Shown in pieces: positions 1-934 of a DNA stretch of 934 nt. The DNA is from a phage: sequence record AB841365.1; one strand, given 5' to 3'. Position 1 is the stretch's first letter. Every line of letters starts with the position of its first letter. The notes beneath the pieces are model-generated. The model saw nothing but the letters and a program-made list of their open reading frames with translations, was not told where the DNA came from and ran no database searches. Position numbers and translations under genes: made by a program.

Positions 1-157
1 CGCCAGCTTCTATGGTTCGCTCAATGTCACGGACTACGTTCTTCGGCAGCTTTCCAAATGCTTTTGCCACCATAAAAGAATCTGTAACCGGATCGTTGTT
101 TGCTACAAAAATTAGGTCTCTGAAATCTATATCGTTAACAACGGTTGGGTAGTTCAT
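1..157 (-). CDS. Rha-family phage regulatory protein (antirepressor-like), N-terminal 52 codons; 3' end continues beyond window start
   Basis: Not in the supplied ORF track, probably because it is open-ended. My translation from ATG at 157..155 gives MNYPTVVNDIDFRDLIFVANNDPVTDSFMVAKAFGKLPKNVVRDIERTIEAG..., open to position 1. The segment LIFV..NDPVTDS..VAKAFGK....VVRDIE resembles the N-terminal signature of Rha-family proteins (Pfam Phage_pRha) as I remember it. Upstream in frame there is no alternative ATG/GTG/TTG before the stop at 274..272, so 157 is the first possible start. The SD is weak (AAAGG about 14 nt upstream). Same orientation as Rz/Rz1, as in P22-like late regions where rha follows the lysis genes. 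Confidence 0.6.
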   Translation of the reverse strand, partial: MNYPTVVNDIDFRDLIFVANNDPVTDSFMVAKAFGKLPKNVVRDIERTIEAG

Positions 158-304
158 TGCGTCTTTACCTTTTAGAAAGATGAGCCTGTTCGCACAGAAA
201 AGCCGTCCCCGAGATGGTCGCCACCATATACGGCAATTCTCAGGCTCAGCTTTCTGAAAGACTCGGGATTGTTACGCGCTGCGATGCGCGGTTTACTGCA
301 GATG

Positions 305-331
305 TAAAAAAGCCCCGCAAATGCGAGGCTA
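305..331 (-). terminator. rho-independent (intrinsic) terminator, oriented for minus-strand transcripts coming from the lysis genes
   Basis: Minus-strand RNA reads a-GCCUCGC-AUUU-GCGGGGC-UUUUUU-aca: a 7-8 bp GC-rich stem (one G-U wobble), 4-nt loop and a run of 6 U. On the plus strand the same stem would have a C-A mismatch and no downstream U-tract, so the orientation is minus. It lies about 170 nt downstream of the Rz stop and about 150 nt upstream of the Rha-like start. Confidence 0.7.
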
Positions 332-363
332 AATCCTGGTATTTGTAATGACTGGCTCTTATC

Positions 364-507
364 TCAACGCAGCCCCTTACCGCGCGCCAGATGCTCAACT
401 TCAAGCATCAGCAATGAGATGTTTAATCTGGATTCACTCCAGAAGTGATCACCACCCTGTCTACAGAGCCAGATGTGAAGGATGATGAGTAAAATTATCG
501 CTATCAT
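364..507 (-). CDS. candidate small protein, 47 aa, hydrophobic N-terminus; hypothetical and unverified
   Basis: My translation: [47 protein letters not shown], stop TGA at 366..364. Its ATG (507..505) overlaps the Rz stop (506..504) as ATGA, a common translational-coupling arrangement. The first 13 codons have T at the second position in 10 cases, as expected for a membrane segment. The ORF ends about 33 nt before the intrinsic terminator. There is no recognisable SD and no homolog I can name; short hydrophobic ORFs also arise by chance in AT-rich DNA. Confidence 0.25.
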   Translation of the reverse strand: MIAIILLIILHIWLCRQGGDHFWSESRLNISLLMLEVEHLARGKGLR

Positions 508-934
508 CGAAGGCATTGCGTCCTGATGTACTCCTGCAGGTAGTTAACCTGCGCGGTTATCCTGTCGATTCCACTTCGGAGACGGTAATAATTGAGTTCA
601 NCATCTGCTGTAAGTCCTGGGCTTTCTCCATCGCCCATGCCGCTGGCTCCGGTCGTTGACTTTGCACAGGTGGCGGCGACTTGCAGGCGCTTACGCCCAG
701 CAGAAACATCAGCACGGAGACTTTCGATAGTCGCGTTAGCATCAGCAAGCTCCTTTGTGTATCTTGCGTCGAGTTCTGCTACATCACGTTGACGCATCTG
801 CATGTCAGTAATTGCCGCGTTCGCCAGCTTCAGTTCTCTGGCATTTTTGTCNCGCTGGGCTTTGTAGGTAATGGCGTTATCACGNTAATGATTAACANCC
901 CCATGACAGACAGACGANNGATNCNNNTAACCAG
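504..934 (-). CDS. Rz: i-spanin Rz (inner-membrane spanin subunit of the lysis cassette); 5'-partial, N-terminus continues beyond window end; stop TGA at 506..504
   Basis: The supplied ORF (504..803, 99 aa) is only the part downstream of an internal Met. Translating the same frame upstream of 803 gives ...[38 protein letters not shown]..., which matches phage lambda Rz as I recall it (...[56 protein letters not shown]...). Beyond about 900 the reverse complement of 901..915 reads VCLSW (lambda ...IIVCLSW) but in a register shifted by one base, next to the N at 898, consistent with a sequencing indel. Two Cys are retained at positions equivalent to lambda Rz C99 and the C-terminal Cys (...TQCLR). 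A lambda-length Rz (153 aa) would start around 960, outside the window. Confidence 0.92.
557..742 (-). CDS. Rz1: o-spanin Rz1 (outer-membrane lipoprotein), wholly embedded within Rz in a different reading frame
   Basis: Supplied ORF 557..748 starts at a TTG; I prefer the in-frame ATG at 742..740, which sits 7 nt downstream of a perfect AAGGAG. The product is [20 protein letters not shown]|[19 protein letters not shown]...: a signal peptide with basic n-region, hydrophobic core and lipobox V-S-A-C (Cys codon 683..685), Lys at +2 (not Asp, consistent with outer-membrane sorting), then a Pro-rich mature region. Architecture matches lambda Rz1 as I recall it (signal + lipobox Cys, PPPPP, AW, C-terminal ...G). 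Stop TAA at 559..557. Full embedding inside Rz is the classic lambda-type spanin arrangement. Confidence 0.85.
750..755 (-). promoter_or_regulatory. Shine-Dalgarno sequence (AAGGAG) for Rz1, encoded inside the Rz reading frame
   Basis: Minus-strand sequence is acacAAGGAGcttgctgATG: a perfect AAGGAG with a 7-nt spacer to the Rz1 ATG at 742. In the Rz frame the same bases encode the K-E of the YTKELAD motif. Confidence 0.7.

Follow-up and report, generated by a model that had tools for sequence, protein, structure and literature searches.

A small gene of the Sf6 gp65 / PHROG 11822 family at the end of a lambdoid lysis cassette

Does the short open reading frame (ORF) whose start overlaps the stop codon of the phage gene Rz encode a protein, and what might its product do? 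The question was raised by a stretch of phage DNA of 934 nucleotides (nt; AB841365.1), in the following called the window, in which an ORF of 47 codons plus stop lies on the minus strand at positions 364–507. Read on this strand, the window covers the end of a lambdoid lysis cassette of the P22-like, Lederbergvirus type. Comparative analysis identifies the ORF as a real gene, and every testable criterion places it in the Sf6 gp65 / PHROG 11822 family. As it is already annotated, the result is a correctly called gene rather than a new one. What remains of interest is a very common and conserved terminal gene of lysis cassettes, accompanied by a conserved RNA element, that has apparently never been characterised. 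For its product we lean, by a narrow preference, towards a late-expressed, accessory small inner-membrane peptide that affects the disruption of the envelope.

Identity and conservation of the small gene

The small ORF extends from ATG 507–505 to TGA 366–364. Its start codon overlaps the Rz stop codon TGA 506–504 (cgATGAtag). This overlap and the 47-codon minus-strand frame, both described in the original prediction, were confirmed from the sequence, and overlap or abutment of the two genes is conserved in the homologs. The length of 47–50 codons is unremarkable because many ORFs of the window are similar (14 of at least 20 amino acids (aa), nine of these of at least 44 aa). Support for a real gene is given by the comparative evidence.

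A second ATG (516–514) is located in frame 9 nt before ATG 507. The frame is open from there as well and yields the form of 50 aa found in the databases, which starts with MPS. A Shine-Dalgarno-like tetramer AGGA can be read at 521–524 (minus strand), 4 nt upstream of ATG 516. ATG 507 has no Shine-Dalgarno sequence of its own, and translation from it would rely on stop-start coupling. In divergent homologs the start aligns with ATG 507 and not with ATG 516, and in several of them the sequence further upstream contains an in-frame stop or offers no start codon. ATG 507 at the Rz stop is probably the ancestral start. Within the family the start lies between 4 nt of overlap with the upstream stop (ATGA, TAATG) and 7 nt beyond it. 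GAGGT or AGGTG usually precedes the conserved ATG by 3–6 nt in the other clades.

The ORF had been taken for unannotated and likely to be missed by default annotation, which proved incorrect. It is annotated as gene 65 of Sf6 (AAQ12250), gp67 of epsilon34, Sf101_0062, gene 62 of g341c and in many newer phage records; g341c and the newer records label it as hypothetical protein. UniRef uses the name 'Bacteriophage protein (Gene 65)', and RefSeq/PGAP lists a hypothetical protein beside 'lysis protein' in complete E. coli genomes. Thus, the ORF is present in GenBank, RefSeq, UniProt and PHROGs; a few records, including HK620 and mEp213, omit it. The profile phrog_11822 (unknown function) was matched over the full length, with residues 1–50 on profile positions 1–50 of 50 (E = 8.6e-38), and the divergent homologs match the same profile. 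The exact sequence of 50 aa occurs in at least 1000 contigs. In complete E. coli genomes the DNA was found in 1,952 of 5,426 (36%), with up to four copies per genome.

Copies from E. coli, Shigella and Salmonella share at least 84% identity, too much to decide whether the gene is real. Protein searches and genome scans revealed members in Klebsiella, Raoultella, Kluyvera, Citrobacter and Phytobacter with 43–60% identity, nearly all of them 44–47 aa long. One of them is the homolog of 45 aa in Klebsiella phage ST16-OXA48phi5.2 (MLILFILLSIWLCRLSEKPGWFKVSHIISMLALEDEHPARGKGLR), which starts 2 nt past the Rz stop. An exhaustive search with a hidden Markov model (HMM) in 1.84 billion representative proteins gave only about two dozen true matches. 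The family therefore appears to be small and confined to prophages of Enterobacteriaceae. Its consensus is M-L-x-L-F-I-L-L-S-I-W-L-C-R, followed by a variable stretch with one fixed Trp and then by E-H-P-A-R-[GS]-K-G-L-R. The family motifs [ILF]-L-L-[SH]-I-W-L-C-R and E-H-x-A-R-[GS]-K-G-L-R are both represented in the window, as IILHIWLCR and EHLARGKGLR. Across the examined homolog loci the small ORF closes the lysis cassette in every case and is always encoded on the same strand. A same-strand small gene appended to the spanin genes, as originally predicted, is thus genuine by comparative evidence.

The ratio of nonsynonymous to synonymous divergence (dN/dS) was determined in all six frames from 56 nucleotide variants, all distinct and intact. 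It is lowest in the real frame (0.53, against 0.76–1.5), which alone is free of stops in 56 of 56 variants. For single regions of the gene this ratio (omega) was calculated from changes counted along a minimum spanning tree. Constraint at the protein level could be demonstrated for one part, the hydrophobic membrane-anchor segment of codons 1–16 (460–507, minus strand), with an omega of 0.24 (p = 1e-10). The changes are distributed over the first, second and third codon positions as 34/7/47. This pattern, with the second position nearly fixed, is what selection for hydrophobic residues leaves behind. Part of the loci had been found with N-terminal peptide patterns, a procedure that could lower dN. 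Hence, the test was repeated on loci found solely via a DNA motif downstream of the gene. In this sample the N-terminus again showed an omega of 0.24 (p = 1.7e-7), and the middle of the gene a value of 0.96. The N-terminal value is the same in both samples, so that translation of the hydrophobic N-terminus is evidently under selection, with the linker free to vary.

A possible accessory membrane peptide

The small gene would be the last cistron of the late lysis cassette driven from pR'. Late expression together with the lysis genes appears plausible because no promoter-like site was detected in the window on either strand. Translation would be coupled to the preceding gene, here through the ATGA overlap with Rz or from the in-frame ATG 9 nt upstream with its AGGA. 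The product of 45–50 residues is expected to be anchored in the inner membrane by its hydrophobic N-terminal 13–18 residues. All five Lys and Arg residues are located C-terminal to the hydrophobic run, and the positive-inside rule predicts the N-terminus outside and the C-terminus inside. The remaining residues, about 30, might form an amphipathic helix with a basic end at the cytoplasmic face. As a dispensable accessory membrane factor, made together with holin, endolysin and spanin, the peptide would most likely influence when or how efficiently the envelope is disrupted. Transcription of the lysis module, or the processing of its mRNA, would end just past the gene at a conserved hairpin, for which the window contains a canonical terminator. 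It is the position of the gene that suggests a role in lysis.

The properties of the peptide are consistent with a membrane location. A hydrophobic N-terminus had been noticed from the beginning; the mean Kyte-Doolittle hydropathy of residues 1–15 is 2.95, and this feature is conserved and under purifying selection. The summed Hessa ΔG of the segment amounts to −3.6 kcal/mol. An AlphaFold2 (AF2) model consists of two helices with an overall confidence (predicted local distance difference test, pLDDT) of 67. One helix covers residues 2–19, and the pLDDT is about 89 over the first 10 residues.

Several observations weigh against an envelope-acting peptide. The hydrophobic run of 13–15 residues is short compared with the approximately 18–22 residues of a membrane span; with the MPS extension it reaches 18. 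Codons 17–37 evolve neutrally (omega about 1.1; 0.96–1.13). For codons 38–47 an omega of 0.44 was obtained, which is no better than that of a shifted frame. In the motif-found sample the C-terminus was not significant and the shifted frame scored better. Conservation of the C-terminus cannot be separated from constraint at the nucleotide level, which may account for it; synonymous divergence (pS) is lowest in the last 10 codons (0.21, against 0.30–0.46). A constraint on the length of the linker is not claimed, as the number of in-frame indel variants is about that expected under neutrality.

Furthermore, the gene is not always intact. Of 110 distinct nucleotide variants, about 95 have an intact ORF, about 10 are cut short by nonsense mutation, frameshift or recombination, and four to five have lost the stop. 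For Rz no point-nonsense mutation occurred among 90 full-length variants, and 15 short Rz frames are recombination remnants. In Salmonella phage SEN22 (locus L005, 785–1932) a transposase-bearing element is inserted about 10 codons into the small ORF. The truncated variants and this insertion indicate that the gene is dispensable and accessory. In homologs of other genera with 50–60% protein identity, on the other hand, frame, start, length and position are kept. In a few prophages (loci L019, L022 and L063, also P0001 and P0093) the TGA is mutated to a sense codon, so that the frame of the small ORF continues across the terminator into the next gene and yields a fusion product of 169 aa.

The genes around the small ORF also speak against a narrowly defined partner. 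At least five unrelated spanin or membrane genes precede it, and the genes found in this place include a lambda-type Rz (phrog_13), another Rz family (phrog_312), separate o-spanins (phrog_1275, phrog_5672), a membrane protein (phrog_8494) and an ORF of 94 aa (phrog_717). The types of holin and endolysin differ between these cassettes, too. Such varied and unrelated holin, endolysin and spanin types argue against a specific protein partner within the cassette. This independence leaves room for a general effect on the membrane, for a target in the host or for a role of the module mainly at the RNA level. No study on the function of the small ORF turned up in the searchable literature. Relatives of the peptide among defence systems (PADLOC) or in Pfam, NCBIfam and PDB were not found either, so that no structural or family clue to an activity is available. 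A match to the 'transglycosylase' profile phrog_37432 is weak (E = 0.028) and spans the hydrophobic run only.

Where the small ORF stands beside an unrelated spanin gene, it carries the last 8–12 codons of a lambda-type Rz, a remnant which holds the Shine-Dalgarno sequence of the small ORF. The mobile unit therefore consists of Shine-Dalgarno sequence, ORF and 3' element. In L016, L119, L127, L136 and others, Rz remnants (..QEYITTQCLR) separate an unrelated o-spanin gene from the small ORF and lie about 35 nt ahead of its start. They mark a recurrent recombination joint within the 3' end of Rz. In L101 (2294–2494) and in 12 similar loci of the Klebsiella type the preceding gene encodes a two-helix membrane protein of 58–66 aa (phrog_8494, unknown function), which follows a GH108-type endolysin. 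In these cassettes, which have no obvious Rz/Rz1 pair, the phrog_8494 protein may be an unrecognised spanin substitute.

Elements at the 3' end and other explanations

The end of the small gene overlaps a region of strong nucleotide conservation. The stop codon and the 10 nt following it form a 13-mer, TGAGATAAGAGCC (354–366, minus strand; also L004 2555–2567), with near-invariant columns in all clades from E. coli to Kluyvera and Phytobacter, and it is conserved above the level of the coding sequence. Together with ATTAC this motif was found in viral contigs directly after the small ORF in 117 of 120 occurrences.

Two hairpins were considered in this region. The candidate RNA hairpin HP1 (AUCUGGCGCGCGGUAAGGGGCUGCGUUGAGAU; 361–392, minus strand) was predicted with RNAalifold from 19 diverse relatives. 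It lies inside the last nine codons and encloses the stop codon. HP1 has 12 pairs, which are 99.6% paired; five pairs vary on one side, all in a wobble-compatible manner, and compensatory double changes number zero. We regard this evidence as suggestive only. The second hairpin, HP2 (L004 2571–2606; alignment A3, columns 55–97), is found in relatives and is absent from the window. This long structure has an outer stem CAUUA/UAAUG and an inner stem of 10 bp, and it is present in most relatives outside E. coli and in some E. coli copies. Compensatory double changes were detected for eight of its 15 pairs, all eight in the inner stem; this number is reached by none of 500 shuffles, and slid controls collapse. 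Between the phages, sequence homology extends precisely to the 3' foot of HP2 and no further. HP2 might be a site of RNA processing or stabilisation where the lysis genes meet the packaging genes.

In the window and in about half of the E. coli copies a canonical terminator replaces HP2 after CAUUACAAA. The element CATTAC (345–350, minus strand), which in relatives forms the 5' arm of the outer stem of HP2, lacks its partner arm here, and the terminator takes the place of that arm. The intrinsic terminator (305–330, minus strand) consists of the stem-loop AGCCUCGC-AUUU-GCGGGGCU (330–311) and of U6 (310–305). Its stem has 8 bp with six G-C pairs, and its loop 4 nt. The terminator begins 33 nt past the small ORF stop, in agreement with the original prediction, and is the only terminator-like site in the window. 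The hairpin forms in the minimum-free-energy fold, and a rho-independent terminator is annotated in epsilon34. A hairpin or a terminator follows the small ORF in every clade.

Some side observations concern the terminator itself. It behaves as a separate mosaic module: the same 40 nt (window 290–330) are found at 92–100% identity in the P22-like Salmonella phages SPN3UB, SE1 and SE10 and in HK022 and mEp234, all of which have no small ORF. In some E. coli prophages (L036, L010 and L069) the terminator cassette (about 41 nt; compare window 305–350) is flanked by the direct repeat CATTACAAA and followed by an HP2-type hairpin. It looks as if the terminator had been inserted into CATTACAAA with duplication. 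Just before the terminator stem, at 331–342 on the minus strand, the sequence AUACCAGGAUUU fits at 10 of 12 positions the CsrA consensus RUACARGGAUGU from systematic evolution of ligands by exponential enrichment (SELEX); this match is found in E. coli copies of the terminator type only. The AUG of HP2 with its Shine-Dalgarno-like GAGGGG was considered as the masked start of a downstream gene and rejected, as no conserved gene is opened by it.

These elements lead to the question whether most of the function resides in an RNA or DNA element which bounds the lysis module on its 3' side, formed by HP1, the invariant GAUAAGAGCC and HP2 or the terminator, with a secondary or functionless peptide. 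Such an element would define where the lysis mRNA ends or how stable it is, for instance as a processing hairpin of the RNase III type or as an insulating terminator. The conservation of the 13-mer from the stop onwards above the coding sequence speaks for this explanation, as do the covariation in HP2, the HP1 pairing that survives all five one-sided changes, and the end of homology at the 3' foot of HP2. The low pS in the last 10 codons and a C-terminal omega indistinguishable from the shifted frame point in the same direction. However, it leaves unexplained the N-terminal omega of 0.24 with fixed second and free first and third codon positions, the conserved Shine-Dalgarno and stop-start junction at the ATG, and the open frame in about 86% of the distinct variants. 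Moreover, apart from the terminator, the 3' region of the window folds no better than shuffled sequences (z = −0.96 for the window-only fold). No Rfam family exceeded its threshold in the window; the sub-threshold matches are driven by the terminator (RyhB with 20 bits, against a gathering score of 55). We consider it unlikely that the RNA is the main functional unit.

Rather improbable, in our estimation, is a membrane-active moron product unrelated to the mechanics of lysis, such as a small toxin, a superinfection-exclusion factor or an inhibitor of a host protein at a mosaic junction. Morons and mosaic joints are known to cluster in the slot between the lysis and packaging genes, and the downstream genes vary (Rha, GIY-YIG nuclease, HNH, terminase). 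The unit moves with only 8–12 Rz codons beside other spanins, and the peptide is independent of the type of holin, endolysin and spanin. Against this stands that the ORF is always on the same strand as the preceding lysis gene and tightly coupled to it. With no promoter-like site on either strand and no antisense terminator, expression in the lysogen or an antisense antitoxin RNA is unsupported, and there is no match in PADLOC, Pfam or NCBIfam. The suggestion of a toxin-like peptide could therefore not be upheld; besides the missing antisense promoter and terminator, no toxin family was matched.

A further idea joins the peptide with the RNA. The ORF and its 3' RNA would form an unrecognised regulatory module that closes lysis cassettes. 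Engagement of the nascent peptide with the membrane, about one exit-tunnel length before the stop, would be read out by HP1, GAUAAGAGCC and HP2. If true, such a module would link the state of the membrane either to the formation of the 3' end or to read-through into packaging genes. This is very unlikely as it stands. In a weaker form of the idea the peptide may be a fifth, general envelope-acting lysis factor, independent of the type of holin, endolysin and spanin.

Closely related, and still more doubtful to us, is a cis-acting 'monitoring' peptide in the manner of SecM, MifM and VemP, in which membrane engagement of the nascent chain controls pausing and thereby a downstream RNA structure. 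A selected hydrophobic N-terminus, a neutral linker and the conserved last 10 codons fit this architecture. From the WLCR motif to the stop 31 residues are counted in nearly all members, and about 31 residues correspond to the length of the ribosomal exit tunnel. The stop codon is located inside HP1, and the invariant 10 nt would occupy the mRNA channel of a terminating ribosome. However, no downstream gene is conserved; the sequences diverge after HP2, the AUG of HP2 opens inconsistent frames of 2 to 317 codons, and the genes that follow differ from phage to phage. The in-frame indel variants, in about neutral number, give no proof of a length constraint, and no similarity to known arrest motifs was detectable.

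Finally, a chance or decaying frame, conserved merely through recent DNA sharing among mosaic prophages, would agree with the high identity of the E. coli, Shigella and Salmonella copies, the many ORFs of similar length in the window and the neutral middle of the gene, but it is refuted, as far as sequence analysis can do so, by homologs of other genera that keep frame, start, length and position, by the significant N-terminal synonymous excess and by the other five frames, which are closed or unconstrained.

Surroundings of the gene and comparison with known systems

The closest DNA matches to the window are Escherichia phage vB_EcoP-720R6, Sf101, CUS-3 and epsilon34 with 97–98% identity. Upstream of the small gene the window contains the 3' two-thirds of the lambda-type i-spanin gene Rz (504–934, minus strand; stop TGA 506–504), which extends past the window edge and is interrupted by N calls. 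The assignment is based on the annotated Rz of Sf101, epsilon34 and Sf6 and on a near-identical Rz, which matches phrog_13 (E = 2.5e-72). The o-spanin gene Rz1 (557–742, minus strand) is embedded in Rz in the +1 frame, within the ORF 557–748, and encodes the lipobox LGVSAC. Its coordinates agree with those of Rz1 in Sf101, epsilon34 and Sf6, where the gene ends 53 nt before the end of Rz. The next gene after the terminator, of which the window holds the 5' part (MNYPTVVNDIDFRDL...; 1–156, minus strand), encodes a regulator of the Rha family. It matches phrog_518 (E = 1.4e-16) and weakly the Pfam family Phage_pRha, and it is annotated as Rha in Sf101 and RefSeq. Across the loci the genes in this place vary. 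N calls were found at positions 601, 852, 885, 898 and 918–927, mostly at the high-coordinate end, which suggests a single-pass read of low quality.

The opposite strand had been described as closed by stops. This is not the case, since the plus-strand frame 348–485 (45 aa) is open. As a real gene it was rejected: indels of 2–5 nt between GAGCC and CATTAC break the frame, omega is 0.83, and the frame is closed in 22 of the 56 variants. A lipoprotein or spanin was rejected as well for the product of the small ORF. No lipobox is present; the only Cys follows I-W-L (Leu at −1), homologs have Tyr or Trp in its place, the peptide has only 47 aa, and separate Rz and Rz1 genes are located upstream. 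An anti-small-RNA of the AgvB/AsxR type, or another known small RNA, was rejected too. The AgvB/AsxR genes have 51–60 nt, of which about 42 nt on the 3' side are conserved, and occupy a moron site directly behind pR' and before the lysis genes (PMC4104026), not after Rz; no Rfam match exceeded its threshold. For the small RNA Pas, described in a preprint, no link to lysis genes was found, and LysZ, the subject of a paper on corynephages, is unrelated to the small ORF.

The small gene is found in the well-studied phages Sf6, HK620, CUS-3 and epsilon34 and in about a third of the complete E. coli genomes. If its product modulates lysis, the description of lambdoid cassettes by holin, endolysin and spanin would be without an accessory component. 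If the 3' RNA elements are functional, they would mark how the long late transcript is divided between the genes for lysis and those for morphogenesis.

Among known systems, the type I toxins Hok, Ldr, TisB and Ibs resemble the small ORF product as hydrophobic membrane peptides of up to about 50 aa. In contrast to them, the small ORF has neither an antisense RNA gene or promoter nor an mRNA with fold-back architecture, and it is the last cistron of an operon and not a separate locus. A type I toxin-antitoxin system was rejected, as no cis antisense RNA, no promoter-like site, no plus-strand terminator and no Rfam family above threshold were found in the window. The likeness to SecM, MifM and VemP is architectural only and comprises the hydrophobic N-terminus, the variable spacer, the conserved C-terminal stretch and the hairpin, which lies at the ORF end or behind it. 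Unlike SecM and MifM, the small ORF has no conserved regulated downstream cistron and no recognisable arrest motif, and the window carries a terminator in place of HP2.

The gene bor of lambda follows Rz in convergent orientation with its own promoter and encodes an outer-membrane lipoprotein of 97 aa, which is expressed in lysogens. It occupies the same slot directly after Rz, whereas the small ORF is encoded on the same strand, is coupled to Rz and has neither lipobox nor promoter. Holins and antiholins, for example lambda S105/S107, P1 LydB and T4 RI, are small late membrane proteins of lysis cassettes with a hydrophobic segment and a charged basic C-terminal tail. The small ORF peptide shares this general layout of a hydrophobic segment followed by a basic tail. 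In contrast, every examined cassette with the small ORF already has a separate holin, the peptide has no sequence-family match to these proteins, and the ORF is dispensable. Its occurrence with unrelated holin classes would also be unexpected for a cognate antiholin.

A same-strand peptide gene behind the spanin genes had been regarded as a possibly undescribed arrangement. The same gene is found at the same position in Sf6, epsilon34 and Sf101. Sf6 gp65, epsilon34 gp67, Sf101_0062 and gene 62 of g341c are 92–100% identical to the window peptide and share the location after Rz/Rz1 and the ATGA junction. The database start of this family lies three codons earlier than the start called in the window; nothing of substance differs.

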